Source of the DNA: Patescibacteria group bacterium
Lineage (GTDB): Bacteria; Patescibacteriota; Minisyncoccia; Phycocordibacterales; EsbW-18
NCBI GenBank assembly: GCA_030917725.1
Contig: JAUPUE010000034.1
Coordinates: forward strand, 1-40,150
Reading direction: 5' to 3'
Length of the DNA: 40,150 nt
Part shown: one piece after another, positions 20,005-39,750 of the stretch
Numbering within the stretch: position 1 is the first letter of the stretch
Layout: every line of letters starts with the position of its first letter
Program-made: the position numbers and the translations under genes
Notes under the pieces: generated by a model
What the model was told of the DNA's origin: nothing
Database searches by the model: none
What the model saw: the letters and a program-made list of their open reading frames with translations, nothing else

Positions 20005-20044
20005 AATATAAAAAGAGAGAGGGGCAGTCTGGCGACTGCCCCTC
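20005..20044 (-). terminator. rho-independent terminator of the TonB_C-like gene
   Basis: gaggggcagtc-tggc-gactgcccctc; on the minus strand it is followed by tctcttttt. Confidence 0.75.
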
Positions 20045-20064
20045 GGGGGTGGGTGGTTCTTCGG

Positions 20065-20439
20065 TCAAGGGATGACCGGAACCTTGATCTTTCCGCGGGT
20101 TTGAACGAATGAAAACGTGCCATCCGGCCAGGTCATCATGGCGGGTTTGTACCGCCACTCCTGAATCGCCTTTTCCGCGGCCTGGATGAGGGCTGGGGCG
20201 AGCCCGCGCTTGACGGGCCCATACGAGATTACGCGCCCATTGTCCTTGATGAGGACCCGGAGCCAGATCTCCTTCTGGGGGGAGACTCCCTCGGGGAGCT
20301 TCACGGGGACGCTGACGGTCAGCTCGGGCGAAGCGAGTCCCGGGGTCGGGATGTTGAAGGTCCGGCGTCCCTTTCCTGCCTCGGCCGTGATGGGTAGGAG
20401 GAGGGAGAGGGCAATGAGGACGAGAACTGATTTCTTCAT
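20065..20439 (-). CDS. small secreted TonB C-terminal-domain-like protein (GC-rich cassette A)
   Basis: Signal peptide MKKSVLVLIALSLLLPITAEA. IWLRVLIKDNGRVISYGPVKRGLAPALIQAAEKAIQEWRYKPA resembles TonB_C. SD AAGGAGG lies 6 nt before the ATG. Confidence 0.6.
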   Translation of the reverse strand: MKKSVLVLIALSLLLPITAEAGKGRRTFNIPTPGLASPELTVSVPVKLPEGVSPQKEIWLRVLIKDNGRVISYGPVKRGLAPALIQAAEKAIQEWRYKPAMMTWPDGTFSFVQTRGKIKVPVIP

Positions 20440-20493
20440 GGCAAGCCTCCTTGCAACTGAATGTGTTGGTGTCCTCCATGAACACCTATCAGT

Positions 20494-20523
20494 ATTATGA
20501 CATTGCGTATACCACTCTGTCAA
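20494..20523 (-). promoter_or_regulatory. sigma70-like promoter TTGACA-N18-CATAAT for cassette A
   Basis: Minus strand reads ttgacagagtggtatacgcaatgtcataat, about 55 nt upstream of the ATG. Confidence 0.45.
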
Positions 20524-20639
20524 TAGGATTGGTTTAGTAAACATATCGCCCCATCGACTTACCCACAGCAAAAACTTGCCAAGGTGTGAGAGGTGCTTGG
20601 TATACTCATGACTCCGTTCTTTTAAAAAATCAAAAATTC

Positions 20640-21074
20640 ATGCGTTTTATAAATAAAAAAGTTAATGTCTTGCTCGTTGACGACGATAGTTTCCTCGTAA
20701 TGCTCTACAAGAAAAACGCAGAGAGCTATCTCGTGGATCTCAACACTGCACTCAGTGGGGAAGAGGCACTTGAGCTTATTCGTACAGGACTCGAGCCGCA
20801 TGCCATTCTTTTGGATATCAATATGCCCGGCATGAGTGGAGTGGATGTACTCCGGACGATACGGGGCGAGAGGCTTGTGCCCTCGACGGATATCATTATC
20901 GTTTCGAATGCCTTTGAGGAGGAATATGCGCATGACTTCAAAGAGTTTGGTATAGAGGATTTCATCCCAAAAACACATCTTTCCCCCTCACGAATTCTTG
21001 ATCGGGTGGTGAGCCGTTATGTGACACCGTCGCATGTGGGGGAGAGTTTTATGAACTCCACAAGGGTTTTCTAG
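20640..21074 (+). CDS. stand-alone CheY-like response regulator receiver (1 of 3)
   Basis: VLLVDDDSF, LLDINMPGMSG (phospho-Asp), IIIVSN, FIPK. No output domain. Confidence 0.85.
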   Translation: MRFINKKVNVLLVDDDSFLVMLYKKNAESYLVDLNTALSGEEALELIRTGLEPHAILLDINMPGMSGVDVLRTIRGERLVPSTDIIIVSNAFEEEYAHDFKEFGIEDFIPKTHLSPSRILDRVVSRYVTPSHVGESFMNSTRVF

Positions 21075-21147
21075 AGGATTTCTCGTGCTATCCTTAAAGC
21101 CTAGATATAGGCTCCTTGGTTTTTCCTCATTATCTAAGCTTACTCAT

Positions 21148-21567
21148 ATGGACACACAAGCACCTGCACAGAAAAAGAAAGTCCTCCTCATCGATGACGA
21201 CCAATTTCTCGTCTCGCTTTATAAGAAGAACGCTGAGCAATATCCGATTGAACTCACGACAGCGATCTCTGGCGAAGAAGCACTCGAAATTCTTCGTGGT
21301 GGATATGTTCCCGACAATATCTTGCTCGATATCAACATGCCCGGCATGAGCGGTGTTGAGGTGCTCAAAGCCGTTCGCGATGAGAAACTCGCACCAAATG
21401 CAGACATGACGATTCTTTCGAACATTCACCAGGCGGAGCACGAAGAAGAATTCCGTAAGCTTGGCATCCAGCGCTTCGTTCCTAAATCATTCCTCCTTCC
21501 GTCACAGGTGCTCGGGTATGTGGTCAACGGCTTTGGTGCAGATTGGTCCGAATCAAATCCTGTCTAA
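21148..21567 (+). CDS. stand-alone CheY-like response regulator receiver (2 of 3)
   Basis: VLLIDDDQF, LLDINMPGMSG, TILSN, FVPK. Clear paralog of the 20640 gene. Confidence 0.85.
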   Translation: MDTQAPAQKKKVLLIDDDQFLVSLYKKNAEQYPIELTTAISGEEALEILRGGYVPDNILLDINMPGMSGVEVLKAVRDEKLAPNADMTILSNIHQAEHEEEFRKLGIQRFVPKSFLLPSQVLGYVVNGFGADWSESNPV

Positions 21568-21584
21568 CGCATCTGCTTACGAAT

Positions 21585-21974
21585 ATGGAAAACGAATCAC
21601 TAAAAACCAAGGCTCTTATCGTGGATGACGACACATTTCTCGTGTCGCTCTATAAGAAGATGGGGGAGGAGACCGGCATGGACCTCCGCACCGCATCGAG
21701 CGGCGAAGAAGCACTCGCGCTTCTCATCGATTTCGTCCCAGACATCATTGCACTCGATATGAGCATGGCGGGTCTCAGTGGGCTCGATACGCTCAAAGAA
21801 ATCCGCGCTAAGAACCTCGCACCAAATGCGAAGGTCATCATCCTTTCGAATACCAACGAAGACGATGCCGTTGTCGAAGCCAAGGGACTCGGTGTTGAAC
21901 ACTTCATTGTCAAAGCGTCACTTCTTCCATCGCAGGTGATGGAGGAGCTTACGAAGATTGCCCGCCTTCGCTAA
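21585..21974 (+). CDS. stand-alone CheY-like response regulator receiver (3 of 3)
   Basis: ALIVDDDTF, ALDMSMAGLSG, IILSN, FIVK. Paralog of the two upstream genes. Confidence 0.85.
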   Translation: MENESLKTKALIVDDDTFLVSLYKKMGEETGMDLRTASSGEEALALLIDFVPDIIALDMSMAGLSGLDTLKEIRAKNLAPNAKVIILSNTNEDDAVVEAKGLGVEHFIVKASLLPSQVMEELTKIARLR

Positions 21975-21987
21975 AGCTTCGGTGGGC
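21960..21987 (-). repeat. dispersed stem-loop repeat, copy 1 (core CCGAAGCTTTAGCGAAGG)
   Basis: gcccgcc-ttcgctaaagcttc-ggtgggc. Abuts the GIY-YIG stop codon. Confidence 0.7.
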
Positions 21988-21994
21988 AGGCCCG

Positions 21995-22252
21995 CTATTT
22001 TAGCGGTATCACCGGAACCAGCCTTTTACGAGCAAAGGCAATGCCGGAGCCAGTTTTAAGATATTTTTCAAATCGAATTGCGATTTGTTCGTCGGTGAAA
22101 GCGGAATACCAAACAAGGTGGTAGGGGATCCTCCCTTTTGTTGGAGGACTCATCCCTTCGTTGTGTTCATATAATCTTCTACGAAGATTGATGGTTGTTC
22201 CGGTGTAGTGTGATCCATCTCGTAAACTTTTTATGATGTAGACATAATGCAT
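21995..22252 (-). CDS. GIY-YIG nuclease family protein (small, URI-domain only)
   Basis: MHYVYIIKSLRDGSHYTGTTINLRRRLYEHN... shows the GIY/YIG and R..L..H motifs. TATGAT lies 6 nt upstream of the ATG. Confidence 0.8.
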   Translation of the reverse strand: MHYVYIIKSLRDGSHYTGTTINLRRRLYEHNEGMSPPTKGRIPYHLVWYSAFTDEQIAIRFEKYLKTGSGIAFARKRLVPVIPLK

Positions 22253-22356: not shown

Positions 22357-22382
22357 CACTACGAAGCTTTAGCGTAGTAGTG
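22357..22382 (+). repeat. dispersed stem-loop repeat, copy 2
   Basis: cactac-gaagctttagcgta-gtagtg. Same 14-nt loop with a different stem sequence. Touches the ssrA 3' end. Confidence 0.6.
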
Positions 22383-22757
22383 GAGATGGCGGGTTTGACC
22401 CCACGTCCGTTGTGTTGTTCTTGACGCATCTACATGACGTAGCAAGTCTTGAATTCTCGTGTCATATCTCGAAGACAGGCGAAACGATATGACATAGAGC
22501 TTTGAATCTTAAGCTGATGATCAAAGCGGCCTCATCAGCAGCGGTTCGAAGGTTTTACGCCTCACGCACTCTATCGAACAGTCGAATGTGGAGACGTCCG
22601 TTACGCGTTAGCGTAAGCGAATGTGAAATCCTTAGCAGTGAAGTAAGGACTTACAGATCCTGATTTTGCAGGTAGGTTTGCGCCATTGGTAAGGAAGGTA
22701 GCGCGCTCCCGCCACGCACGAAAAGAAGCGAACACAGCGTCGAAACAAGACATCCCC
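22381..22757 (-). ncRNA. ssrA: tmRNA (SsrA), 377 nt, CCA not encoded
   Basis: 5' GGGGATGTCTTGTTTCGACG pairs with 3' ...GGACGTGGGGTCAAACCCGCCATCTCCA, including a G3:U70 pair. Internal tag frame ends ...AKDFTFAYANA-TAA (stop at 22601-22603). Directly downstream of smpB. Confidence 0.85.
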
Positions 22758-22917: not shown

Positions 22918-23361
22918 TTACCGATTTTTCAATGTACGCCCGGTATCGCGACGAACGGCCTCCTTTTTGAGAGCTTCGCGCTTGTCGTAGTTCTTCTTTC
23001 CTTTCACGAGGGCAAGGGAGACCTTGATATACCGTCCTTTATTATAGACCGAAAGTGGTACTATTGTCAACCCCTTCTCTTTTTTCTCCATGGCGAGCGT
23101 TGTCAGCTCTTTCTTTGAAATGAGGAGGGGGCGAGGTCGTTTGGGGTCATATGACTCCGAGATGTTCTTGGGTTGGTAGGGCTCGATGTGCATATTCATC
23201 AATTGAGCCGAGGTTCCAGAGAATTCGACATAGGCGCCATCAAGGGAGGCGCGGTGGGCCCGTATGGACTTCACCTCACTGCCTTCCAAAGCGATACCAG
23301 CCTCGATGGTCTCAAGGATGCTGTAATCGCGGCGCACTTTTCTGTTCTCAATCCGTTCCAT
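22918..23361 (-). CDS. smpB: SsrA-binding protein SmpB
   Basis: ENRKVRRDYSILETIEAGIALEGSEVKSIR...LLISKKEL...KGKKNYDKRE. Start MERIENRK at 23361 is preceded by TATCAT plus 6 nt. Confidence 0.9.
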   Translation of the reverse strand: MERIENRKVRRDYSILETIEAGIALEGSEVKSIRAHRASLDGAYVEFSGTSAQLMNMHIEPYQPKNISESYDPKRPRPLLISKKELTTLAMEKKEKGLTIVPLSVYNKGRYIKVSLALVKGKKNYDKREALKKEAVRRDTGRTLKNR

Positions 23362-23397: not shown

Positions 23398-25299
23398 ATG
23401 TCCCAACGCGCCACCAAGCAACCAAAACAGCCTCGCAAGGAGCCACAGCCAAAGTTCCCCAAGAGCTTTATTACGCAGATTCTCATCACGGTAATCATTT
23501 TCTTTGTCATTTCATCGGCGTACACGCTTTTCACTGATCAAAAAGACGCCAACGAGATTCCGTTCTCTCAGGTTGCTCAAGATATTTTGACCGGCTCGAT
23601 CACGTCGATCGTTGTCGAAGGTGACACACTCACGATTATCCGCGCGGATGGTTCGGAGCAGACATCACGCAAAGAAACGGGTGTCGGTCTGTCGGAATCA
23701 TTTGCTGCATACGGCGTGACACCTGCCGAACTCGCATCAACAACCATCTCCGTGCAGAGTGCATCGGGCTTTTGGTTTTGGGTAATCAATCTCGCACCAA
23801 TCCTCATCCCGCTTCTCCTCATCGGATTCTTTATCTATATGATTACGCGCTCTGCAAAGGGAACAGGAATGCAGGCGTTCTCATTTGGTCAGGCGCGCGC
23901 CAAGTTCTTTGATCCCAAAGACAACAAGAAGGTCCTCTTCAAAGATGTGGCTGGTGTAAAAGAAGCAAAACAAGAACTCTTGGAGATTGTTGACTTCCTC
24001 AAGAACCCCAAGAAGTTCCTCGCAATCGGCGCGCAGATTCCAAAGGGAGTTCTCCTCATGGGAAGCCCTGGTACTGGTAAGACATTGCTTGCTCGTGCAG
24101 TGGCAGGGGAGGCAGGCGTTCCGTTCTTCTCGATTTCTGGTTCGGAGTTCGTTGAGATGTTCGTCGGTGTCGGTGCATCCCGCGTGCGCGACTTGTTCCA
24201 AACGGTGAAAAAAGCAGCCCCTGCGATTATCTTTATTGATGAGATTGATGCTGTTGGTCGCGTTCGCGGTACGGGTGTTGGTGGTGGCAACGACGAGCGT
24301 GAGCAGACACTTAACCAGATCCTTGTTGAGATGGATGGATTCGAGCCGACCGAAGAGGTGATTGTCATGGCAGCAACGAACCGTCCTGACGTGCTCGACC
24401 CAGCGCTCCTTCGTCCGGGTCGTTTTGACCGCCGTGTTCGTCTTGACCTTCCTGACCGCGCCGACCGCGAGGCAATCCTTGCGATCCATGCACGCACCAA
24501 GCCGCTCGCCGAAGACGTCGTTCTCAAAACAGTTGCTGAGCGCACGCCAGGGTTCTCGGGTGCCGATCTCCAATCGCTCATGAATGAAGCGGCGATTCTC
24601 GCGGCACGTGAGGACCGCATGAAGGTCGCACAGTTTGATCTTATCCGTTCGATCGAAAAGGTCATGATGGGACCGGAGCGTCGCAGCCACATCCTTTCTG
24701 ATAAAGAAAAGAAGATCACCGCATACCACGAAGCCGGCCACGCCCTCGTTGCGTCGGTGCTCACCGAATCTGACCCAATCCACAAAGTATCAATCATCGC
24801 GCGTGGGCACATGGGCGGTTACACGCTTTCGCTTCCGCTCGAAGAGAATCGTTTGTTCACGCGCAAAGCGTTTCTCGATCGTCTCGCGATGACGCTCGGT
24901 GGATACGCAGCAGAAGAGATGGTCTTTGGTGATATTACAACCGGCCCGTCGAACGATCTTCAGGTCGCATCATCGCTCGCACGTGACATGGTCACTCGCT
25001 ACGGTATGTCGCTCGAAGTCGGACCTGTCGCACTTGTTGAAGACGTGCAGCACCAAGGTGGCATGTCAGAAGTGCGTGACTACTCGGAGAAAATTGCTGC
25101 AAAAGTCGACGATGAAGTCGGCAAGCTCCTCAGCGTTGCGCGTGAACGAGCTGCAAAGGTTCTCACTGACCACAAGCATGTTCTCGACGCGATCGTGAAC
25201 GTTCTCATCGAAAAAGAGACCATCGAACAAGACGATTTTGAGGCTATCCTTCGCGCCCACGGCATTGCTGTGAAGGGGAAGGAGAAGGGGGTATCATAG
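23398..25299 (+). CDS. ftsH: ATP-dependent zinc metalloprotease FtsH
   Basis: Walker [12 protein letters not shown], Walker [13 protein letters not shown], Zn site HEAGHAL. Start chosen at 23398 because TGtTATAAT ends 6 nt upstream. In-frame ATGs at 23368 and 23383 are alternatives. Confidence 0.9.
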
Positions 25300-25755: not shown

Positions 25756-25784
25756 TTGACGAATCTAACGTAATAGTGTACAAT
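25756..25784 (+). promoter_or_regulatory. sigma70-like promoter TTGACG-N17-TACAAT (cassette B)
   Basis: ttgacgaatctaacgtaatagtgtacaat, followed by AAGGAGG at 25796-25802. Confidence 0.6.
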
Positions 25785-25807
25785 CCTTTCCAGAAAAGGA
25801 GGTGCCA

Positions 25808-26071
25808 GTGGACCCCACTGTCCTAGTATTTGTTCGACCGTCACCGCCTCAGCTCTCCGAGCGAGCAGCAAGAACCAAAGAGCTCCTTGATAGGGCGGGG
25901 CTCGATCTTCTTACTGTCGACGTAAACAGGCTTTGCCTTTCTCTGGCGGAACTCGGTAGCGAGTTCCCGTGGGAGAAGGAGACAAGACTGCTCGACGACA
26001 TCAAGGAAATCAGAGAGTACCAAAGACGTCTTCGTGTGTACGAAGACGTGCGCCGACGCCGACGTTCTTAA
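25808..26071 (+). CDS. small hypothetical protein, GC-rich cassette B (87 aa, GTG start)
   Basis: AAGGAGG-tgcca-GTG. Arg-rich C-terminus RRRRRS. The ORF-track start at 25802 overlaps the SD, so 25808 is preferred. Confidence 0.5.
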   Translation: MDPTVLVFVRPSPPQLSERAARTKELLDRAGLDLLTVDVNRLCLSLAELGSEFPWEKETRLLDDIKEIREYQRRLRVYEDVRRRRRS

Positions 26072-26072: not shown

Positions 26073-26100
26073 CGGCCCCCGTTTTTTTGGGGGCCGTTTT
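26073..26100 (+). terminator. rho-independent terminator of cassette B
   Basis: cggccccc-gttttttt-gggggccg-tttt. Confidence 0.75.
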
Positions 26101-26105: not shown

Positions 26106-26130
26106 CTCCGCCGAAGCCTTGGCGAAGGAG
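26106..26130 (+). repeat. dispersed stem-loop repeat, copy 3 (variant core CCGAAGCCTTGGCGAAGG)
   Basis: ctcc-gccgaagccttggcgaa-ggag. Inverted relative to copy 4, 57 nt away. Confidence 0.65.
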
Positions 26131-26180
26131 GACGTTCCTGACTATTATTTATTTTCTATCCTGTCGAATGCGAGGAGCTT

Positions 26181-26207
26181 CCCGCCTTCGCCAAGGCTTC
26201 GGCGAGG
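26181..26207 (-). repeat. dispersed stem-loop repeat, copy 4
   Basis: cccgcc-ttcgccaaggcttc-ggcgagg. Lies between two 14-bp direct repeats ctgtcgaatgcgag (26161-26174 and 26226-26239). Confidence 0.65.
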
Positions 26208-28182: not shown

Positions 28183-28192
28183 GGAAACACTG

Positions 28193-28265
28193 TCCGTCCC
28201 CATGGACTCGAACCATGAACCGCCGAGGTATAAGCTCGGTGCTCTAACCATTGAGCTAGGGACGG
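28193..28265 (-). tRNA. tRNA-Ile with anticodon UAU (reads AUA); C1-G72 acceptor end; CCA not encoded
   Basis: CCGTCCC-TA-GCTC-AATGGTTA-GAGC-A-CCGAG-CTTATAC-CTCGG-CGGTT-CATGG-TTCGAGT-CCATG-GGGACGG-A folds as a canonical cloverleaf. Confidence 0.8.
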
Positions 28266-30096: not shown

Positions 30097-30585
30097 ATGG
30101 ATCCCGAAGAAATAAAAAAATTAATAGATGGGGATCCGGACACGTTGATCAAACGAGCCGGAGAATTGGGTATAGATTTCTCCGATATGGGCAGAAGTCT
30201 TGCTAGAGGAATGGTTACAGGAAAGTTCTCTTTAACGGATGAGCAATTCGAAACCATTGATTTTGTATTCTGGATTTCTTATTTTGTTGAACGTGCCGCT
30301 GAGGAGTTTATAACTTTTCCGGAAGTTAGTGTTGGAGCAAGAAAGGAAGCAATGGACGTATTAATTGGCAAGTTACACTTCGGTGACAAAATAAAGGTTA
30401 TCGAGGAGCTTTATATGGGGAAAAAAGACAAACTCATAATCTTGATGCGCAAAATACAGGATTTACGAAATGATATTGCTCATGGGCGTTTTGATAAATT
30501 AGATTATGGAGGTTATTCCTTAAGTGATAATAGAGGCAAATTAAAATTGGTTGCAAACTTAAGAGACGCCCTTCTCAAAAAGTAA
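30097..30585 (+). CDS. hypothetical protein with C-terminal HEPN-like Rx4H motif (possible Abi/toxin-type RNase)
   Basis: AT-rich 162-aa ORF wedged between the ABC stop and the recG stop. LRNDIAHGRF lies near the C-terminus. Confidence 0.35.
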   Translation: MDPEEIKKLIDGDPDTLIKRAGELGIDFSDMGRSLARGMVTGKFSLTDEQFETIDFVFWISYFVERAAEEFITFPEVSVGARKEAMDVLIGKLHFGDKIKVIEELYMGKKDKLIILMRKIQDLRNDIAHGRFDKLDYGGYSLSDNRGKLKLVANLRDALLKK

Positions 30586-30591: not shown

Positions 30592-32871
30592 CTACTCAAA
30601 ATGCACCTCGCCTCGCTCGGCGAGGGCTTTTTGTAATTCGGGATATTTCTTAAGGAATACGTCTGATTCGACGATTCGTTTTGCTTCGGCACGCGCAGCT
30701 TCAACAAGCTTGAGATTCTTGAGCGCTTCCATACCGATATCGGAGACACCCCACTGTTTCTTGCCCGAAAGATCCCCAGAACCGCGGAGCATGAGGTCGT
30801 GCTCGGCGAGCTCGAATCCATTGGCGGCTTTGGTGAGTGCTTTGAGACGATCGAGCGTCGGTTGTGACTTGGATTCGGTGAAGAGATAACAATATGCCTG
30901 GTGATTACTGCGGAGAACGCGGCCGCGGAGCTGGTGGAGCTGTGAGAGACCAAAGCGCTCGGCACCTTCGATGAGGATGATCGTCGCATTCGGCACGTTC
31001 ACACCAACCTCAACGACTGATGTTGCAACGAGGATCTTGATCGAGCCTTCGGTGAACGCTTTCATCATGTCTTCTTTCTTTTCCGATTTCATCTTGCCGT
31101 GGAGCACACCAACCGAGAACTCGGGGAAGACCTCTCGCGCGAGACGCTTGGCTTCTTCTTCAACAGACTTTGCTTGGAGTGCCATCTCGTCGGTCTCGTC
31201 CGGTGCGTCGATGCGCGGGCAGATAACGTATGCCTGTCGTCCTGCTTCCAATTCTTGTCGTAGGTGTTCATACACTTCTTTGCGTCCCGAAGGCGGCACG
31301 TTCTTTGTGATGATCGGTTTACGTCCTGGTGGCATCACATCAAGCAGCGTGAGATCGAGGTCTCCATATATGGTGAGCGCCAACGTGCGCGGGATCGGTG
31401 TCGCGGTCATGCTTAAAAGGTGTGGGAGGTTCTTGTCTTTGCGTGCCAAGGCCGCGCGCTGTTTGGTGCCAAAGCGGTGCTGCTCATCGATGATGATGTA
31501 GGCGAGATGTTTCCATTCGACCGTCTTTTGAATGAGCGCATGCGTGCCGATAAGGATTGGGATCTCACCGTTCGCGACCCATTTCAACAATTGAGAGCGA
31601 GAGATATTGGTCCAGCCGTTTGGGTTAAGTTTGGACGGGAACTTTTTGCAGCCCGATGACGTGATGAGTGCAACGTTAATCGGCAGTCCACGATAGAGCT
31701 CAACAAACGATTCAAAATGCTGTGTCGCCAAAATCTCTGTTGGTGCCATGAGCGCAACCTGCAAGTTGCCGAAGTCTTGTTTGCCATCAGCAACCTGCGC
31801 CATTTTCTGCAAATCAGATTTCTTTGGGAATGCTGGACCGCTTTGAACCATCTTGGGTGGGCGTGTGGTGACAACAGCAAAGCTCGTTGCTGCTGCGACG
31901 AATGTTTTTCCCGAACCGACGTCTCCTTCGAGGAGGCGTGACATCGCGCGCGTGCCTGCAAAGTCAGCAAAGATGTCTTCGAGCGCTTTTGACTGCGCGG
32001 ATGTTGGTTTGAAAGGGAACTTGGAGAGGAAACCATCAACACTTTCTTTTGTTGGGCGAATGTCCCACGTTGGGAGCGAGTCGGTCATGTGTCGCTCCTG
32101 CTGTTTTTTGAGTTGGATGAAGAAGATTTCTTCGAATGCAAATCGTTTACGCGCCGCGTCAGCATCTTTGTTGTTCTCGGGCGCGTGAATCCACACGAGC
32201 GCTGTGCCAAGCGATGGGAGATTGAGACGTTTGAGAACATCGGCAGGCAGAGGATCGACAATCTGTTTCCCCGCCTCTGGCGGGACCCCGCTGGAAGCGG
32301 TGGCGAGCGCTCCGCCTTTGATGAGCTTTTTAATCGCGTAGTAGATCCAGCGCGAGGTGACACCACGGCTCTCGGGATAGACAGGGAAGAGTGTCCCGGC
32401 TGTTGGCTCGCCGTGTTCATCTCCATCCTCTTGAACAAAGAGCGAGTCGGTTTCGTCAGGAATCACCGATGCGTGCGTTATTGCGGGGTTCGACAGATAG
32501 AATTCACCACTGCGCTCCGAGATTGTTCCCTCGACTTTCACCGTTGCGCCTTCGGGGAACATCTTTGCGATGTAGGGTTGATGGAACCACACGGCTTTCA
32601 CTTTGCCGCTCACCGTGTTGATGGTCGCCTGTGCCATCGGGATCTTCGACTTCCATCCTTTTGAAACTTTTGCTTTCGAGATTGTTCCGTAGAGCGTTAC
32701 CTTTTGTCCTTTTGCGAGACTTCCTGTTTGCGTCGCGCCTGAGAGATCGTCGTATCGGGCAGGGAAGTGATAGAAGAGATCGCGAACAGTCGTAACACCA
32801 AGACGCGTGAGCGCTTTGGTGTGGGATTCGTCCACGCGCAGGGTCTCACTGAGCTTGTCGGAGAGATTCAT
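30592..32871 (-). CDS. recG: ATP-dependent DNA helicase RecG
   Basis: Wedge/OB N-terminus. GDVGSGKT, IIDEQHRFG, SMTATPIPRT, QLHQLRGRVLRS. Start MNLSDKL at 32871 is preceded by TACAAT plus 6 nt. Confidence 0.9.
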   Translation of the reverse strand: MNLSDKLSETLRVDESHTKALTRLGVTTVRDLFYHFPARYDDLSGATQTGSLAKGQKVTLYGTISKAKVSKGWKSKIPMAQATINTVSGKVKAVWFHQPYIAKMFPEGATVKVEGTISERSGEFYLSNPAITHASVIPDETDSLFVQEDGDEHGEPTAGTLFPVYPESRGVTSRWIYYAIKKLIKGGALATASSGVPPEAGKQIVDPLPADVLKRLNLPSLGTALVWIHAPENNKDADAARKRFAFEEIFFIQLKKQQERHMTDSLPTWDIRPTKESVDGFLSKFPFKPTSAQSKALEDIFADFAGTRAMSRLLEGDVGSGKTFVAAATSFAVVTTRPPKMVQSGPAFPKKSDLQKMAQVADGKQDFGNLQVALMAPTEILATQHFESFVELYRGLPINVALITSSGCKKFPSKLNPNGWTNISRSQLLKWVANGEIPILIGTHALIQKTVEWKHLAYIIIDEQHRFGTKQRAALARKDKNLPHLLSMTATPIPRTLALTIYGDLDLTLLDVMPPGRKPIITKNVPPSGRKEVYEHLRQELEAGRQAYVICPRIDAPDETDEMALQAKSVEEEAKRLAREVFPEFSVGVLHGKMKSEKKEDMMKAFTEGSIKILVATSVVEVGVNVPNATIILIEGAERFGLSQLHQLRGRVLRSNHQAYCYLFTESKSQPTLDRLKALTKAANGFELAEHDLMLRGSGDLSGKKQWGVSDIGMEALKNLKLVEAARAEAKRIVESDVFLKKYPELQKALAERGEVHFE

Positions 32872-32954
32872 ATATCTATTGTAGCTGATGGGAGATGAGA
32901 TAGTTTTTAAGCTCTTGACAAAATGTCCGACCACTTGACTTATGCTTTAAAAGC

Positions 32955-32982
32955 GTTATAATACAAGGTAGAGTTTCAATTC
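32955..32982 (+). promoter_or_regulatory. sigma70-like promoter TTGACT-N16-TATAAT (cassette C), followed by a ~100-nt structured leader
   Basis: ttgacttatgctttaaaagcgttataat. Leader hairpins ctttgg/ccaaag and gaagtc/gacttc. Confidence 0.55.
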
Positions 32983-33080
32983 TGTTCCGCTTTGGTCCTT
33001 ACCAAAAGAATGCTCAGAAATTATTGAGTTGAAGTCATAGACTTCCAACAGCTTTCGACGCCCTCAAGGAGGGGGCCACA

Positions 33081-33983
33081 ATGAAGAAAGTCTCTCGCGT
33101 AGTTGCTCTCGTGCTTTTGTTGGCGATGGCACCCATCGCCGCATCGGCGACTGAGGGCTTCTCGATGGCCCTCACGGATTCGTCCGGTGAGAAGGTCATC
33201 GAGTTGAAGCGGTTTTTCGCTCAGTTCGACTGGCGGAGTGACGGAAGTGGTGACACGATTCGTCGTGTCCGCCCGTTGCTCTACCTGGGCCACGGCACCT
33301 GCCGTGGCAAGGTGGAGATGAACTTGGCGGCCACCGAGGTCGCAAACGACGCCAATGGAAATTGGTTGGAGATCGCCACTCTTGAGTGCGCGGTTTCTGC
33401 CAACACCACTGTGTCGGTGGGCCGGCTTTTCTTGTCCGGTCCTCGTTCGACTCCTCCGCCATTCCTCTTGAGGACGGTGGAGTACCCAAAGTCGAACACG
33501 TTTGCCGCGTATGCGTACGGAGTGCAACTCCAACGCACATTTGGTGAATGGAATTTCGTCGTCGACGTTACCGGCGATTCTGGCCGGCAGTTCAATGACG
33601 ACGGCAACTTCGATCGAATCGAATCGTCTTTCCGGATCGGGCGCAAGCTCGGTTCGGTGGGAACGCTCTCATTCACGTCACAGCTTTCTCGGGACTTTAC
33701 CCGGGTCGGCCTCGACTGGATGAGTTCCTCAGACCAGAAGCTCAATGTGTGGGCCGGCGTCTACTACGACGACGGCACCACCGAGAAGCTGCTCGGGATG
33801 GCACAGGTCTCTTATCCGCTCGGACGGTACATCCGTCCGCACGTGATGTGGGACCATCGCCCCGATGGTTCGGAAGAATGGACCGTCGGCACAGAAGTTT
33901 TTGTCACCCCGCACGTTCGCGTGCTTGGTGACTACGAAACCCGTGCTGACCGAATCCTCGCTCGGCTACAGTTCCACTGGTAA
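33081..33983 (+). CDS. secreted OMP-like beta-barrel protein (cassette C gene 1)
   Basis: Signal peptide MKKVSRVVALVLLLAMAPIAASA. Alternating-hydrophobic strands in the C-terminal 170 aa. C-terminal LARLQFHW. SD AAGGAGG. GC-rich. Confidence 0.6.
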   Translation: MKKVSRVVALVLLLAMAPIAASATEGFSMALTDSSGEKVIELKRFFAQFDWRSDGSGDTIRRVRPLLYLGHGTCRGKVEMNLAATEVANDANGNWLEIATLECAVSANTTVSVGRLFLSGPRSTPPPFLLRTVEYPKSNTFAAYAYGVQLQRTFGEWNFVVDVTGDSGRQFNDDGNFDRIESSFRIGRKLGSVGTLSFTSQLSRDFTRVGLDWMSSSDQKLNVWAGVYYDDGTTEKLLGMAQVSYPLGRYIRPHVMWDHRPDGSEEWTVGTEVFVTPHVRVLGDYETRADRILARLQFHW

Positions 33984-34004
33984 CGACCCCAAGGAGGGGA
34001 AGCG

Positions 34005-34715
34005 ATGAAGCTCAACAAGCTCGTGTTCATTCTCGTGCTCGCCATCGTGGCGGGTATCACCGTCAACAGCGCTTCGGCGCAGACCAACTACACCGTCACC
34101 ACGAAGCTCATCGACAAGTACTTGGGATCGAACGGAGGGGTCTTCTTCGATGGCCCCGTCGTTCAGTCCGATGTTCTCAGATGCTTCGAAAACGGCATCT
34201 GTGCCAACCTCTGGGTGTCGCGAGGTGATCGTGGCCAGTGGGGTGAGGAGACCGATTCCGAGGTCGACATCAACGGTGAGTGGTCGGATGAGAACTTCAA
34301 CGTTGGCATCCTCTACATCTTCTCGCCACCGTCAGCGAGCAACGTTCTCAACCTGTACGCCACGGCGACGACCGACGAGCTCGTGGGTGGTGTCAGGGCT
34401 TACTTCAAGCTCGAGCACTATCTGGCGATGGAAGGAAACGACCCGGGTCGCGGGTCGTTCACACACCTCGGCCTCAAGGGTGATAGGACGCTCGGCAACT
34501 TCAACTTCGGTTGGACGGTCGAGGTGTTCTATGACACCGGTGCGTTCGGATTCTCCGATGGCACCTTGGCCGCCGCGAAGGCGACGCTGCTCTATGATTT
34601 CGGTCAGCTTTCGCTCGGGCCGATGATCAAGGCGACGACGCCCATCCACATCGCCAACGACGACGGTCGCGAGTTCGACTATGCGGTCGGCCTCGTCAGC
34701 CAGTTCACCTTCTAG
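34005..34715 (+). CDS. secreted OMP-like beta-barrel protein, possibly Gcw_chp/TIGR02001-like (cassette C gene 2)
   Basis: Signal peptide MKLNKLVFILVLAIVAGITVNSASA. C-terminal YAVGLVSQFTF is an OMP-type terminal Phe signature. SD AAGGAGG. Confidence 0.6.
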   Translation: MKLNKLVFILVLAIVAGITVNSASAQTNYTVTTKLIDKYLGSNGGVFFDGPVVQSDVLRCFENGICANLWVSRGDRGQWGEETDSEVDINGEWSDENFNVGILYIFSPPSASNVLNLYATATTDELVGGVRAYFKLEHYLAMEGNDPGRGSFTHLGLKGDRTLGNFNFGWTVEVFYDTGAFGFSDGTLAAAKATLLYDFGQLSLGPMIKATTPIHIANDDGREFDYAVGLVSQFTF

Positions 34716-34725
34716 GAGGTGCTCC

Positions 34726-34902
34726 ATGCAGACCTTCTTGATCATCCTCGCGGTGGTCTACGTCATCGGCGGATGCTGTGCGGTTTGGGTGGAAGAGTCA
34801 CTTCACTTCACTCACAAGCCCGGCCGCATGGCCCGCCGATTCATCCTCTGGCCGATTAACCCGATGTGGGCGATCGCCATCACGTTTCCTCGCGATTACT
34901 GA
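34726..34902 (+). CDS. 58-aa membrane protein (cassette C gene 3)
   Basis: AGGAGG-tgctcc-ATG. MQTFLIILAVVYVIGGCCAVW TM helix. Confidence 0.5.
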   Translation: MQTFLIILAVVYVIGGCCAVWVEESLHFTHKPGRMARRFILWPINPMWAIAITFPRDY

Positions 34903-34990
34903 GCATTCTGAACGTATCAAAACAGCCCCCAAAGGACGGGGCAAAAGAGGGCCGGTTTCGCTTCGTGCGGACCGGTCCTTTCTCTATCTC

Positions 34991-35012
34991 GACGAAGCTT
35001 TGGCGGAGGCGG
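34991..35012 (+). repeat. degenerate copy 5 of the dispersed repeat
   Basis: acgaagctttggcggagg matches the core at 15 of 18 positions. Confidence 0.4.
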
Positions 35013-35054: not shown

Positions 35055-35082
35055 TTGACACAGGTCTTTTTATGAGTACAAT
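35055..35082 (+). promoter_or_regulatory. candidate rRNA promoter TTGACA-N16-TACAAT
   Basis: ttgacacaggtctttttatgagtacaat, ~280 nt upstream of the 16S. A weaker TTGCCT-N18-GATAAT lies at 35110-35139. Confidence 0.5.
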
Positions 35083-35259: not shown

Positions 35260-35286
35260 CCCTCCTTCGCGTAAAGCTTCGGAGGG
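35260..35286 (-). repeat. dispersed stem-loop repeat, copy 6 (in the rRNA leader)
   Basis: ccctcc-ttcgcgtaaagcttc-ggaggg, perfect 6-bp stem. Confidence 0.7.
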
Positions 35287-35333: not shown

Positions 35334-35357
35334 TATGAAACATGGTGACATGTTTTT

Positions 35358-36926
<1,569 letters not shown>

Positions 36927-37051
36927 ACAAAATGCTCTGATCCCGAAAGGGTAGGAGTTTAGGCGGTCGATATCATGTGCCTCAATTGAGCATGTGATGG
37001 ATCATGATTGAAGATCCTACGAAACAATCTAGACACTCGGGAAAGACTGAG

Positions 37052-37070
37052 ATTGAGCAGAACAAAAGAA
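37052..37070 (+). promoter_or_regulatory. 3' arm of the pre-16S processing stem
   Basis: Perfect 19-nt complement of 35315-35333. Confidence 0.75.
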
Positions 37071-37092
37071 AGGACATATTTCGATACCAAAA

Positions 37093-37116
37093 GGCCGCCT
37101 AACAAGGCGGTTTTTT
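37093..37116 (+). terminator. rho-independent terminator directly after the 16S unit
   Basis: ggccgcc-taacaa-ggcgg-tttttt. Confidence 0.75.
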
Positions 37117-37197: not shown

Positions 37198-37356
37198 GTG
37201 GAGCAATTCGATTGGCCAACTTTTGTTGGCAGGGTACTCATCGCCGTCACGGCATTTGGTATCATCCTTCGTTTTCTGTTCTTGCTGGGCGCTCGTAGCG
37301 CTCGGTGGGCAGAAGACAACAAACCGAAACTCACGAAGGCAAAGGAGAAGCTGTGA
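37198..37356 (+). CDS. 52-aa single-TM protein (cassette D gene 1, GTG start)
   Basis: GGGGGAGAG-aatc-GTG. VEQFDWPTFVGRVLIAVTAFGIILRFLFLLGARS.... Not in the ORF track (under 60 aa). Confidence 0.45.
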   Translation: MEQFDWPTFVGRVLIAVTAFGIILRFLFLLGARSARWAEDNKPKLTKAKEKL

Positions 37357-37586
37357 GAGCTGCCGTCTCAGGTATCGGCATGAAACTCATGCCGAGCGAT
37401 TTGCTGGAGGAGGCGAAAGCGAACGAGCCGTTCGCTGTCGTTTCATCTCCAGCATGTGATTGTGGACACATCCTTGCGGATGATTTCACCGCACACCACT
37501 TCACGTGTAAGTCACTCTGGAAGATCATCCAGCTTCCGAGTGGTTCCAAGAGAGTTCACACCGGACTGATCAAGGGGGTCTCATGA
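37353..37586 (+). CDS. ~70-aa soluble Cys/His-containing protein (cassette D gene 2)
   Basis: GTG overlaps the upstream TGA (GTGA), preceded by AAGGAGA. Alternative ATG at 37380. CDCGH...HHFTC motif. Confidence 0.45.
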   Translation: MRAAVSGIGMKLMPSDLLEEAKANEPFAVVSSPACDCGHILADDFTAHHFTCKSLWKIIQLPSGSKRVHTGLIKGVS

Positions 37587-37717
37587 TTCCGATTCTCATC
37601 GTCGTCATCGGTACCATCGCGTTCGTCGCGATGGCCAAGTACCTCAACCGTCGGGACGACAAGCGCCTCGCGCGCCGTCTCCCGCCTAACCAGCGCCACT
37701 TCTTCACGGGGCGCTAA
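37583..37717 (+). CDS. 44-aa single-TM protein (cassette D gene 3)
   Basis: ATGA start/stop overlap, AAGGGGG SD. MIPILIVVIGTIAFVAMAKYL then a basic tail. Confidence 0.45.
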   Translation: MIPILIVVIGTIAFVAMAKYLNRRDDKRLARRLPPNQRHFFTGR

Positions 37718-37726: not shown

Positions 37727-38011
37727 ATGAAAGTGGCCAAACTGATCGTTGTCGTCTGCAAGGCCGGGATCTTCGGAGTGCTTGTGTGGTTCGCTGCGCT
37801 TCTGTTGGCGGCTGTGAACAGCACACCCACTGTGGCTCAGCAGAATCGTTTCGACAGAGAGATGCCGTCGAATATCCTCTATGTCGAGGACGAGGTCGGT
37901 CTCTGCTGGGCGCACTTCTTCAAGTACGGCCAGTGGGTCGACGTCGAGCCGATAGCGTGCACTCCACGAGTGTTGGCTCACCTCGACAAGCACGGCTCGC
38001 CTCTGCGGTGA
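37727..38011 (+). CDS. 94-aa signal-anchored protein (cassette D gene 4)
   Basis: TAAGGAGA-agcc-ATG. MKVAKLIVVVCKAGIFGVLVWFAALLLAAV hydrophobic N-terminus. Confidence 0.55.
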   Translation: MKVAKLIVVVCKAGIFGVLVWFAALLLAAVNSTPTVAQQNRFDREMPSNILYVEDEVGLCWAHFFKYGQWVDVEPIACTPRVLAHLDKHGSPLR

Positions 38012-38042
38012 CCATCACCGACCGGTTCGATTCCGGTCAATG

Positions 38043-38080
38043 CAGTCCGTCCCCTCGGGGAACGGGCTGCTTTATTTTTT
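38043..38080 (+). terminator. rho-independent terminator of cassette D
   Basis: cagtccgtccc-ctcg-gggaacgggctg stem (one bulge) followed by ctttatttttt. Confidence 0.65.
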
Positions 38081-38127
38081 CATTGAGAATATGGGCGCTT
38101 TTTGGTATAGTCTCCTCGCTAGGTAAT

Positions 38128-38201
38128 GCGCGTGTAGCTCAGCTGGTTAGAGCACGTCACTGATAATGACGAGGTCATAGGTTCGAATCCTATCACGCGC
38201 A
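38128..38201 (+). tRNA. tRNA-Ile (anticodon GAU)
   Basis: GCGCGTG-TA-GCTC-AGCTGGTTA-GAGC-A-CGTCA-CTGATAA-TGACG-AGGTC-ATAGG-TTCGAAT-CCTAT-CACGCGC-A. TTGAGA-N17-TATAGT upstream. Confidence 0.9.
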
Positions 38202-38221
38202 CTTTAGTTAATCTTTATTTT

Positions 38222-38731
38222 ATGAAGAAAATCATATTCGCTCTCGGTATCGTCCTCATTATTCTGGGCGCTTGGTTCTTTATGCGGCCTAAGGAGACAG
38301 TCACCCAAGACAACCTTGGCCCTAACCCTGTCTCTGCAAAAGAAACCAAAGTCGGGGATCGAGTCGGAGCGTTTGAGGTTTCAGAGATGCAGGTAGGCCC
38401 TACATCTATCACAGCAACATTTGTTGGCACAGCTACAGTCAACGTTGTTTGTTCATACGGTGATATGTTTGGGTATGTTTGTACGCCTGATGACGAGTCG
38501 GCAAAACAAGCGATTCCAAGATTTACAGAACTTGCAGATATTGGAAGCCAAAAATCTTTCTCTGTTATTGGTGAAGGTACTCCATTTGATTCTTTTAAAA
38601 AGAACTTCGAGATCGCCTCAGGTGCTAATGGGTCATCAGTTCCTCTGCGCATAACAATCACCGATTATGTGACTCGTTCCGGAGATACTACCATTATGTC
38701 CCGCGCAAGATTGGTGGAGGTGGTTGAATAG
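38222..38731 (+). CDS. membrane-anchored or secreted hypothetical protein
   Basis: MKKIIFALGIVLIILGAWFF signal anchor. 169 aa. No SD. Confidence 0.6.
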   Translation: MKKIIFALGIVLIILGAWFFMRPKETVTQDNLGPNPVSAKETKVGDRVGAFEVSEMQVGPTSITATFVGTATVNVVCSYGDMFGYVCTPDDESAKQAIPRFTELADIGSQKSFSVIGEGTPFDSFKKNFEIASGANGSSVPLRITITDYVTRSGDTTIMSRARLVEVVE

Positions 38732-38758
38732 CGCTTGTTGATTTTTTATTTAAAAGAT

Positions 38759-38782
38759 CAGCTGCACCCGGGGGTGCAGCTG
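38759..38782. terminator. bidirectional terminator hairpin
   Basis: cagctgcacc-cggg-ggtgcagctg between convergent genes. Confidence 0.7.
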
Positions 38783-38809
38783 GGACTTCGCGCGATACTG
38801 TGCGGAAGC

Positions 38810-39577
38810 TTACTTGGTCGCGAGGACCTGATAGAAGGCCCTGTATCCGATTGACCCCGATGCGTTGCAGGCGATAAGTACATCCTGGGTCATGAGCTGG
38901 TGGAACACGCGCGTCGTCACGAAGCCTTCCTCCTTAAGCTGTTTGGGGAACAGAGAGGCCGGATGGTACCACACGGTTGAATCGAAGATGTTGCCCTCCG
39001 AATCAACGTAGCGTTCTGCGAACCGCTGACTCTGCGTCATCGGTGCGGTCTCCATCGCCTCATACTGCACCCAGGATGCCTGACCCGTTCGTGCCGGACT
39101 GTCCGCCTGAAACAGATCGGGGTGCATTATGGAGACGATCAGGCGACCCCCATACTTGAGTACCTGGTAGGCTTCTCGAAAGAAGCTCTGGCACTCTTCT
39201 GGGGAGTCATGGATGAGGACCGCGATGCAGGCGATGCGGTCGAACGACTCAGACGGGTACGGCAACTCCTTGGTGATGTCGGCTTCATCATAGATGATGC
39301 CGAGGGGCTCGAGCGTCTCGTGTTCGCGGGCGCGGGAGAGCATCGTGGGGCTGCGATCACAACCCAACACTACCGCTCCGTGGTCGCGAACCAGTCTTCG
39401 GGCGATAAAACCCGAACCGCATCCAGCGTCGAGAACGACTTCGCCGGGTTGCGCGTCGAGAATCTTCAGCGAAGGCAGGCGACCGAGGTGGTCGCCAACA
39501 ACGGTGAGACGGTCGCCTTTACCCGTCCACATCACTGCAGAACTGGATTCATAAGGCAGGGTTTCGTCGGGATTCAT
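38810..39577 (-). CDS. class I SAM-dependent methyltransferase (GC-rich, SD-led)
   Basis: VLDAGCGSGFIARRL motif I. AAAGGA lies 8 nt before the ATG at 39577 (longer ORF runs to 39610). TTGACT-N16-TAAAGT upstream on the minus strand. Confidence 0.75.
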   Translation of the reverse strand: MNPDETLPYESSSAVMWTGKGDRLTVVGDHLGRLPSLKILDAQPGEVVLDAGCGSGFIARRLVRDHGAVVLGCDRSPTMLSRAREHETLEPLGIIYDEADITKELPYPSESFDRIACIAVLIHDSPEECQSFFREAYQVLKYGGRLIVSIMHPDLFQADSPARTGQASWVQYEAMETAPMTQSQRFAERYVDSEGNIFDSTVWYHPASLFPKQLKEEGFVTTRVFHQLMTQDVLIACNASGSIGYRAFYQVLATK

Positions 39578-39750
39578 GTGTTCCATCCTTTCAAGGTTGT
39601 GGCGGTCCACGGGTACTTTACATCACTTTTCAATATAGTCAACGTACGTTTCTCTCTTTGAAATGGTACGCGCACAGAAGTCGATTGTTCGATATACTCA
39701 CCAAACGGGCACGTGGCGGAACTGGACTTATAACTTTTCCGAGGCTAAGT

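Follow-up and report, generated by a model that had tools for sequence, protein, structure and literature searches.

GC-rich gene units with conserved Shine–Dalgarno sites in a Parcubacteria contig whose 16S rRNA gene lacks the anti-Shine–Dalgarno sequence

Why should a genome keep perfect Shine–Dalgarno (SD) sites if the only 16S rRNA that can be seen in it is unable to pair with them? The question is raised by contig JAUPUE010000034.1, the whole 40,150 bp of which were analysed (hereafter, the window) and which belongs to a bacterium of the Parcubacteria/Paceibacterota, in the candidate phyla radiation (CPR). Ten genes in five GC-rich units (A, B, C1–C3, D1–D4, and M) are led by SD motifs and are compared here with a backbone set of 35 genes. 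The explanation that we favour, with a probability of roughly 0.55, is that the units are long-resident native envelope operons, inherited vertically in this Parcubacteria genus, with SD sites that still function after the anti-SD of the 16S rRNA was lost. An identical sequence was assembled independently in several samples; therefore, the contig is not an assembly chimera or artefact. The parts of the five units are the following:

20494–20523, minus strand: promoter of unit A, TTGACA-18-CATAAT with an extended TG, 11/12 matches; the −35 box is conserved in the relative L099
20065–20439, minus strand: gene A, 124 amino acids (aa), signal peptide; SD AAGGAGG at 20446–20452, spacing 6 nucleotides (nt)
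20019–20044, minus strand: terminator of unit A, 11-bp stem with 8 GC pairs, T run
25756–25784, plus strand: promoter of unit B, TTGACG-17-TACAAT, 10/12
25808–26071, plus strand: gene B, 87 aa, charged; SD AAGGAGG at 25796–25802, spacing 5 nt
26073–26096: terminator of unit B
32935–32962, plus strand: promoter of unit C, TTGACT-16-TATAAT, 11/12, nearly invariant in 11 loci
32969–33039, plus strand: conserved 5' part of the unit C leader, of native GC content; contains AGAATGCTCAGAAAT (33007–33021), complementary to 34895–34909
33081–33983, plus strand: C1, 300 aa, signal peptide, ending in ...QFHW; SD AAGGAGG at 33066–33072
34005–34715, plus strand: C2, 236 aa, signal peptide; SD AAGGAGG at 33991–33997
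34726–34902, plus strand: C3, 58-aa membrane protein; SD AGGAGG at 34714–34719; conserved in L001, L087, and L220
37132–37159, plus strand: promoter of unit D, TTGACA-16-TATAAT with an extended TG, 12/12, between the 16S terminator and tRNA-Ile
37198–37356, 37353–37586, 37583–37717, and 37727–38011, plus strand: D1, D2, D3, and D4, small open reading frames (ORFs) with an SD before each
38810–39577, minus strand: M, 255 aa; moderate SD-like AAGGA at 39586–39590; promoter at 39615–39642 (9/12); terminator at 38759–38782

In a mechanical scan, the promoters of the five units score 9–12 out of 12, and those of A, C, and D rank with the promoters of 16S rRNA, transfer-messenger RNA (tmRNA), and tRNA-Ile. 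This agrees with the original prediction, made from the sequence alone, that the units share a near-consensus promoter. Its statement that each unit has its own terminator can also be upheld, with the hairpins of A, B, and M recovered by the scan and those of C and D seen by eye only; in unit D, a hairpin and a T run lie 3' of the genes at ~38040–38080. The leaders measure ~17–112 nt and not the 40–100 nt expected. The supposed insertion of the units into intergenic gaps is an interpretation, and the loci are conserved in relatives.

Gene starts were fixed by hand, and the 20 nt upstream of each start were scored against the canonical anti-SD ACCUCCUUA. The median duplex energy is −11.3 kcal/mol for the unit genes versus −0.1 kcal/mol for the backbone; values of −8.4 kcal/mol or lower are found in 9/10 unit genes, whereas only three of the 35 backbone genes reach −6 kcal/mol (Mann–Whitney p = 4.8e-6). 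The start of M was corrected to 39577, because its homologues are 255 aa in length and the first ATG is mutated in L220; with this correction, all ten unit genes are at −7.8 kcal/mol or lower, at a spacing of 4–8 nt. The motifs are AAGGAGG, AGGAGG, AAGGAG, GGGGG, or AAGGA. Composition separates the two sets as well: the GC content is 0.575 in the unit genes versus 0.48 in the backbone (p = 2.8e-6), and the GC content at third codon positions (GC3) is 0.71 versus 0.52 (p = 3e-5). The two gene dialects that had been described in this DNA are confirmed overall, since the SD, GC3, and promoter contrasts hold; SD motifs are not equally common in the SD-poor backbone, and the GC content of the units is not indistinguishable from it. 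The description of the sites as strong fits nine genes, M having a moderate site only, and the spacing range of 5–9 nt has to be shifted as given above.

The other side of the contradiction is the 16S rRNA gene:

35055–35082, plus strand: 16S rRNA promoter, TTGACA-16-TACAAT, 11/12, the yardstick for promoter strength
35356–36925, plus strand: 16S rRNA, 1363.7 bits over the full Rfam model SSU_rRNA_bacteria, with a CPR-type insertion at ~36450–36570
All RNA genes of the window: 16S rRNA, tmRNA, tRNA-Ile(UAU), tRNA-Ile(GAU), and tRNA-Leu(CAG)

After helix 45 (h45), from position 36913, the tail of the 16S rRNA reads GGAUUUUGUCAAAUGACAAAAU, and no CCUCC is found in the gene or its trailer, as had been noted for this only 16S gene of the window. 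Among 120 metagenomic contigs with an identical 29-nt h45, 115 have A/U-rich tails without CCUCC; in the remaining five, four tails are the canonical GGAUCACCUCCUU and one has CCUCC farther downstream, all within 30 nt. The 16S genes of L040 and L220 also lack CCUCC. The loss as such is already published, the anti-SD motif being present in only 48% of Parcubacteria (Tsurumaki et al. 2022, RNA 28:1041; PMC9297842). The tail and ~170 nt of the trailer (36913–37085) are 100% identical between the window and L220, and neighbouring genes of this pair show a synonymous divergence (dS) of 0.4–0.8; such identity suggests a constrained, functional gene. As the 16S gene has its own terminator (37095–37110) and no 23S gene behind it, the rRNA genes are unlinked. 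A search of the window for the anti-SD-like GATCACCTCCTT with at most two mismatches gave chance-level matches only.

Some further features of the 16S region can be noted. The anti-SD-less tails of the relatives (L100–L219) fall into a few recurring types, for example, GGAUUAAUUCAAUUUGAAAA and GGAUCAUUUUUUUAAAAA; many keep GGAUCA, with a U-rich sequence replacing exactly CCUCCUU, and similar A/T-rich spacers also surround some of the canonical tails. The anti-SD may accordingly have been lost several times independently, or the tails may have drifted rapidly once the constraint was gone. The trailer holds the hairpin UUUUGUCA/UGACAAAA and a CCC-GAAA-GGG hairpin, and the 5' leader strand GCTCAATT at 35330 pairs with the trailer strand AATTGAGC at 36985. 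The sequence CCCUCCUU in the pre-16S leader (35260–35268) was considered as a partner of the SD sites and rejected: it lies within a small inserted repeat and is not a general solution, because this repeat is absent from L001. The repeat is a diverged copy (~35262–35280) of the 17-nt motif CGAAGCTTTAGCGAAGG, which occurs in 6–7 copies versus 0.17 expected; the others are at 21965–21981, 22362–22378, 26112–26128, 26185–26201, 34993–35009, and 39883–39899. No copy lies in the first half of the window; the copies are found between units or at the ends of genes and often have short complementary arms on either side (26109–26131 and 26182–26204 are 96% complementary). The pre-16S copy is the ~30-nt insertion missing in L001 and carries CCCUCCUU paired with GGAGGG. 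Judging by its sequence, the element looks like a small repetitive extragenic palindromic (REP) or miniature inverted-repeat transposable element (MITE)-like one.

If the 16S rRNA has lost its anti-SD, the remaining SD motifs might be relics. However, the SD was retained, at −9.3 kcal/mol or lower, at 15/15 orthologous sites in relatives, and it was kept while the surrounding leader diverged (A in L099, C1 in L002, and D1 in L220). When neutral decay was simulated at the dS of each gene (with the dS of D1 assumed to be 1.0), retention was 3–19% per site, with a joint probability of ~5e-6 over five contrasts. An SD likewise precedes the unrelated genes that have replaced others at loci C and D. 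The canonical sites are thus kept by purifying selection; therefore, the motif would do something at the start codon in these cells. The paradox flagged in the original prediction is real and stronger than it was stated, as the sites are conserved under selection.

Similar genes occur beyond the close relatives. Genes of the C2 family in L222 (a 722-kb scaffold), L223, and L224, which are CPR-like, have a GC3 of 0.70–0.77 and are rich relative to their own genomes. Their sites are of the GGAGG or AAGGAG type in L223 and L224 and a weaker GAAAGGA in L222; the genes of L222 and L224 have a consensus promoter and a leader, and that of L222 also a terminator, in genomes otherwise of leaderless style. 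At the RecG loci of 78 distant relatives, 74 of 1211 genes of at least 100 aa (6%) are SD-led, versus 16 and 25 with GC-matched control motifs, complementary and arbitrary (1–2% of genes). For these SD-led genes, the GC3 z-score is +0.62, with 43% of them above z = 1 versus 15% overall, a significant result for this set of loci. In the smaller set of contigs confirmed to be anti-SD-less, the SD is likewise enriched (23 versus 4 and 7), and the GC3 shift of the SD-led genes is not significant there. Across all ORFs of at least 50 aa, SD-led ORFs are no GC-richer than ORFs behind reversed-motif controls.

The backbone genes appear to initiate differently. A −10 box is situated 5–9 nt before the start in 11/35 backbone genes versus 7.7% of random ATGs and in none of the ten unit genes; with a match of 5/6 or better, it is found in 7/35 backbone genes versus 1% of random ATGs. 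About a third of the backbone thus looks leaderless, which supports one part of the earlier description, a start 6 nt after a −10 box, and not its extension to most of the backbone. Other backbone genes are SD-less and operon-internal or have AU-rich leaders. The following genes are examples of the leaderless arrangement:

23398–25299, plus strand: ftsH (Pfam annotation), TATAAT, 6 nt, ATG
22918–23361, minus strand: smpB, divergent from ftsH and leaderless in the same manner

The promoters of these two genes, which start back to back at 23361 and 23398, are leaderless and overlap. Inside smpB (23041–23070, minus strand), a sigma-70 promoter that matches at all 12/12 positions faces the tmRNA gene (22378–22757, minus strand) and is probably the ssrA promoter. 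A gene at 2181–4907, just upstream of the low-GC block 5020–8128, is leaderless too (TATACT, 6 nt, ATG); its product, a putative VirD4/TraG-like coupling ATPase of 908 aa, is matched weakly by the type IV secretion coupling families T4SS-DNA_transf and TraG-D_C. Among the tRNA genes, tRNA-Ile with the anticodon UAU, which is rare in bacteria, is located at 28192–28265, beside the usual tRNA-Ile(GAU) at 38128–38202.

How long the units have resided in this lineage can be judged from their synteny and divergence. The reference gene in most comparisons is the neighbour of locus C:

30592–32871, minus strand: RecG

This protein is 96% and 89% identical to those of two Patescibacteria-type metagenome-assembled genomes (MAGs), labelled Ca. 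Parcubacteria and uncultured Ca. Saccharibacteria, and for the 78 relatives that follow, which are Patescibacteria MAGs with few exceptions, the identity is only ~59%. Units A, B, C, D, and M are found at matching positions in the relatives L001, L002, L081–L088, L099, L220, and L224, each locus where it is covered. In L099, the genes on either side of unit A are those of the window, and L001 contains B; locus C adjoins recG in L001, L002, L081–L088, L220, and the more distant L224; in L220, locus D lies between 16S and tRNA-Ile, and M is also present.

In each genome pair, the dS of the unit genes equals that of the flanking housekeeping genes. Gene A and its L099 orthologue share 80% aa identity at a dS of 0.45 (backbone 0.22–0.83), with a ratio of non-synonymous to synonymous divergence (dN/dS) of 0.28. 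The C1 orthologues are 85% (L220), 79% (L081), and 71% (L002) identical at a dS of 0.59–0.90 and a dN/dS of 0.18–0.24; set against RecG, the dS values are 0.59/0.45 in L220, 0.90/0.75 in L002, and 0.70/0.66 in L081. For C2, the dS is 0.62, and for M, it is 0.76, with a dN/dS of 0.14. The dN/dS of the unit genes, 0.14–0.34, indicates that they are genuine genes, under purifying selection yet faster in their evolution than core genes. There is an exception: g25328 and B are 98–100% identical to L001 (25328–26100, dS ~0), whereas the flanking ftsH and g27361 have a dS of 0.47–0.68. This points to a recent recombination tract common to both lineages.

The codon usage of the units is also native. 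The correlation of relative synonymous codon usage with the genes of IF3, L35, and L20 is 0.85 for the unit genes, 0.75 for the remaining backbone, and 0.19 for a group of low-GC genes; a comparison with ribosomal-protein genes, which had been suggested as a check, thus places the units closest to them and not among foreign genes. For leucine in the unit genes, CTC is 0.53 and CTG 0.15, and this unusual preference is common to the backbone. For the choice of C- versus G-ending codons in eight four-fold families, a measure from which the level of GC3 is factored out, the unit genes agree with the native backbone (Spearman 0.90, p = 0.002), whereas the low-GC genes do not (r = −0.33).

These low-GC genes (GC 0.37–0.45, GC3 0.34–0.44) are situated at 5020–8128, 13283–14508, 17141–17674, 21995–22252, 30097–30585, and 38222–38731. 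The GIY-YIG gene at 21995–22252 is almost identical in L099 (dS 0.04 versus 0.2–0.8 for its neighbours), the gene at 30097–30585 is swapped in relatives for an NYN-domain gene (L081) or a glyoxalase-family gene (L220), and that at 38222–38731 is absent in L220. By their composition and distribution, it is these genes, rather than the GC-rich units, that look like the mobile or foreign fraction.

Homologues give the same picture. A word-based search of 5.8 billion proteins yielded one homologue cluster for A and six for C2, each with a readable contig being in the same syntenic context, and no donor-like homologues of A or C2 outside the clade. A phage or plasmid origin of C2 was considered and rejected, there being no tblastn match. 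No integrase or transposase was found among the ORFs scanned and the gene tables, not every small ORF having been scanned, and no flanking direct repeats were found at the unit borders.

The original prediction took the products of the units to be secreted or membrane proteins. Judged by eye, this is true for 7/10, the exceptions being B, D2, and M. An AlphaFold2 model of C2 from an 83-sequence alignment has a predicted local distance difference test score (pLDDT) of 92.5 and a predicted template modelling score (pTM) of 0.82 and contains a signal peptide followed by 12 long strands (a model from a 7-sequence alignment, with a pLDDT of 42, was unusable); the sequence ends in ...QFTF, with an aromatic C-terminus (...TF). 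The top 50 Foldseek matches are all Gram-negative outer-membrane barrels, with template modelling (TM) scores up to 0.61, including Tsx, a KdgM-type porin, OmpG, and the beta-domains of intimin/invasin. On this model, C2 is confidently predicted to be a 12-strand outer-membrane-type beta-barrel. The Pfam family Gcw_chp (PF09694, threshold 24 bits), described in Pfam only as a bacterial protein of unknown function, does not match the C2 of the window; it matches three of seven close homologues (best E = 2.4e-5), and two more distant members of the family pass 24 bits. The family profile finds 435 representative clusters.

C1 is a 300-aa predicted secreted protein with an aromatic C-terminal residue; it was considered as a paralogue of C2 and rejected, since only the signal peptides align. 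Gene A matches TonB_C with E = 2.2e-4 and 22.0 bits versus a cut-off of 24.6 and TIGR01352 with 17.1 bits versus a cut-off of 27.1. Sequence searches of the PDB with C1 and A were empty. C3, D1, D3, and D4 are small predicted membrane proteins, and a transmembrane segment is seen in three of D1–D4. No signal peptide and no family match were found for gene B. M is a class I S-adenosylmethionine (SAM) methyltransferase (Pfam Methyltransf_25/11, E = 2e-20, above the cut-offs), with homologues of 43–59% identity on long contigs, including a Ca. Kaiserbacteria protein at 55%; its composition is like that of the other units.

Gene content at two of the loci is variable. In first position, locus C has C1, an unrelated gene for a 224–232-aa membrane protein (L001 and L088), or nothing (L083); L087 has an extra 90-aa gene there, and L001 has a different C2 allele (dS 1.45 versus 0.45 for RecG). 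L220 retains, at locus D, the promoter and, at 39% aa identity, a homologue of D1, with one different 49-aa membrane gene replacing D2–D4; both genes are SD-led. An alignment of 11 loci indicates that the promoter and the first 70–90 nt of the C leader are nearly invariant, and the D promoter with the first part of its leader is conserved in L220. In these comparisons, the expression platform of loci C and D stays fixed and its cargo varies.

The leader of unit C has some features of its own. Its most conserved block, AGAATGCTCAG, has a perfect 11–13-nt complement directly after the C3 stop (34895–34909). This inverted repeat is kept in five loci (the window, L001, L084, L087, and L220), with 0.96–1.9 kb of operon between the arms, and could be a 5'–3' mRNA bracket for processing or stability or an anchor for recombination. 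The leader also contains a conserved mini-ORF at 33009–33026 (ATG CTC AGA AAT TAT TGA, MLRNY), which is shorter in L002 and L087 (MLRN) and longer in L081; it may be a leader peptide or a coincidence. A riboswitch or another known RNA was considered for this leader and rejected: the consensus fold has only −4.6 kcal/mol with one covarying pair, and there is no Rfam match.

Taken together, the data suggest the following picture. The GC-rich units would mostly encode envelope or secreted proteins (the porin-like C2, C1, the TonB_C-like A, and small membrane proteins), and they seem built for high expression, with strong sigma-70-type promoters, of which those of A, C, and D are the strongest in the region, a leader, and a terminator-like hairpin. 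Their high GC3 may be due to codon preferences that are native and closest to those of ribosomal-protein genes. The units appear to evolve fast, and recombination between conserved flanks would reshuffle their gene content, a pattern common among surface proteins; together with the strong promoters and the native codon bias, such fast, recombining evolution is in keeping with proteins that are abundant at the surface. Candidate readers of the SD are rare canonical ribosomes or, as non-canonical partners, a local hairpin, a small RNA, or a protein, while the remaining genes would initiate without an SD, on leaderless mRNAs or behind AU-rich leaders.

Several points weigh against this picture. 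No SD reader was found; a substitute for the anti-SD within the native 16S tail or its trailer was considered and rejected, as the unit starts bind them with a mean of −11.8 kcal/mol versus −11.5 ± 2.9 kcal/mol for shuffled sequences, that is, no better. As the sites are exactly complementary to the canonical anti-SD and lie at the canonical distance, a canonical-type reader or ribosome fits them better than the alternatives do, and the genome is incomplete, which leaves room for a second rrs copy. High expression is deduced from sequence signals only. The ribosomal-protein codon reference comprises only 354 codons, the genes of IF3, L35, and L20 are only mildly GC3-enriched in distant relatives, and the high GC3 could also come from GC-biased gene conversion at recombination hot spots. 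The small ORFs of unit D have little comparative support, and the evidence that they are coding is weaker than for A and C.

Two explanations place the origin or the destination of the units outside this cell. If GC-rich DNA had recently arrived by horizontal gene transfer from an SD-using diderm, perhaps a host, the SD would be an unameliorated donor signal, and the higher GC content (0.575 versus 0.48) and GC3 (0.71 versus 0.52), the outer-membrane-type fold of C2 with its weak Gcw_chp link, the weak TonB_C match of A, and the difference in gene content at loci C and D between close relatives would be accounted for. A recent arrival, however, is at odds with the dS parity between the units and their flanks, with loci, promoters, and leaders conserved across species, and with the native codon preferences (CTC far above CTG; Spearman 0.90). 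Homologues of A and C2 occur only in the same syntenic context where the contig is readable, none is donor-like, phage and plasmid matches are absent, and the family of M has CPR members; moreover, neutral SD sites would have decayed. Transfer from a host, as proposed in the original prediction, is thus largely refuted, and we regard it as distinctly improbable. The idea that the genes are meant for expression elsewhere, their DNA or RNA being delivered to an SD-using host, would explain an SD that is useless with the visible 16S rRNA and a C2 fold like that of proteins normally found in the outer membrane of diderms, and the VirD4/TraG-like coupling ATPase at 2181–4907 might serve such delivery. 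Yet the promoters are of the native 16S/tRNA/tmRNA type, codon usage is native, the apparent Sec-type signal peptides of several products are suited to export by the producing cell, and the units are chromosomal, syntenic, and vertically inherited, with no transfer origin or mobility module beside them. Nothing requires this explanation, and it seems far-fetched.

Three other explanations keep the units native and differ in what reads or maintains the SD. The purine motif may not be read by rRNA at all: it could be bound by a small RNA or an RNA-binding protein, or belong to a small hairpin just before the start, and thereby position or co-regulate initiation on these leadered mRNAs. At 5/9 SD-bearing starts (A, B, C1, C2, and C3), the motif indeed folds into a short hairpin with a complementary CCUC-like stretch upstream of it; in unit A, the stem is GCAAG/CTTGC in the window and AGCC/GGCT in L099, the hairpin being kept, and start-region modules are repeated within operons (families D5 and D1). 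The z-scores of the folds are weak, however (−0.5 to −1.7), such a reader does not require an exact anti-SD complement, and no candidate protein or RNA was identified, so we consider this unlikely. It is doubtful, and more so, that the sites are maintained by gene flow from a source to a sink, with operons recombining among Parcubacteria, including those that keep the anti-SD, and copies being replaced before their SD decays. Signs of allele exchange (C2 in L001, with a dS of 1.45 against 0.45 for RecG; the identity of g25328 and B with L001), gene content swapped between conserved flanks, and the few contigs with the same h45 that carry an anti-SD are consistent with it, and Parcubacteria donors could share the codon preferences. 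Nevertheless, most unit genes have the dS of their neighbours, which makes replacement too infrequent, the SD is retained along vertically inherited branches, and no anti-SD-bearing donor was identified. Finally, specialised ribosomes with a second 16S gene carrying CCUCC, located outside the contig, could translate the SD-led operons. Exact AAGGAGG at 4–8 nt, under selection, would suit them, as would the canonical GGAUCACCUCCUU tail in 4/120 contigs with identical h45. CPR genomes usually have a single rRNA operon, however, and the tail ratio of 115:5 is far from the 1:1 expected for two alleles in one genome, which makes the second rrs allele of the original prediction unlikely, albeit on indirect evidence. 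The identity of the tail and trailer with those of L220 also suggests that the visible gene is functional, and no anti-SD-like sequence occurs elsewhere in the window; this solution seems improbable.

Within the preferred reading, that of native, long-resident envelope operons, a more specific claim can be made: the SD sites would be read by a mechanism other than the rRNA tail and would serve highly expressed envelope operons, one of them with an outer-membrane-type porin in a supposedly monoderm lineage. We offer it tentatively and do not expect every part of it to hold. If it is true, there is a second way of recognising the SD, independent of the rRNA tail, and the porin implies that an outer layer has gone unrecognised or that the pore is delivered to the host's outer membrane. 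Where a lineage has lost the anti-SD, its SD initiation is usually taken to have ended, a view with which genome-wide surveys agree; here, perfect SD sites persist under purifying selection in a small, conserved set of genes. The readings that remain are a new SD reader, ribosomes whose heterogeneity is hidden, or gene flow of unusual intensity. It also follows that a high GC content together with an SD is no mark of foreign DNA in CPR genomes. To judge by their sequences, the surface proteins that are most abundant and evolve fastest in these uncultured symbionts are probably products of these loci, and the porin-like barrel would either challenge the monoderm picture or hint at how the cells tap their host.

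Among known systems, integron and genomic-island cassettes share with the units a fixed promoter, variable cargo, a ribosome-binding site for each gene, and a shift in composition. Here, however, no integrase, attC-like sites, or direct repeats were found (attC models were not run), the codons are native, the genes co-diverge with the chromosome, and the 3' ends are simple terminator hairpins. C2 resembles Tsx, the KdgM-type porins, and OmpG in its signal peptide, its 12-strand model, and its C-terminal ...TF, with TM-scores of 0.51–0.61 to Tsx, VhGalP, and OmpG; unlike these Gram-negative outer-membrane channels, it belongs to a CPR bacterium, and the few described CPR members are monoderm (PMC8871954).

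With canonical SD-led operons of high expression, the units have in common the −35/−10 promoter, the leader, AAGGAGG at 4–8 nt, the terminator, and the codon bias, but the partner CCUCC is absent from the only 16S rRNA seen here and from the clade. Bacteroidetes initiate independently of the SD with a few SD-bearing exceptions, and they keep the anti-SD in an occluded form in their 16S rRNA; the SD-bearing minority is the same here, whereas the anti-SD sequence itself is gone. The anti-SD loss described by Tsurumaki et al. (PMC9297842) is the same as that of the present 16S rRNA, which ends in GGAU followed by an A/U-rich stretch; that study reports no genes keeping a canonical SD in such lineages, in contrast to the conserved SD-led minority of this contig. 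To our knowledge, both an SD-led minority in anti-SD-less genomes and an outer-membrane-type barrel in the CPR are new, as literature searches gave no report of either. Genomes without the anti-SD have no SD enrichment, and −10-like hexamers often precede their ORFs (Amin et al. 2018, PLoS One; PMC6107228). The backbone of the window matches this description in being SD-less, in its −10-like hexamers (TATACT and TACACT), and in its leaderless signature; a genome-wide analysis of that kind would miss a subset of 6–20% of genes with a strong SD, and it is such a subset that is found here.

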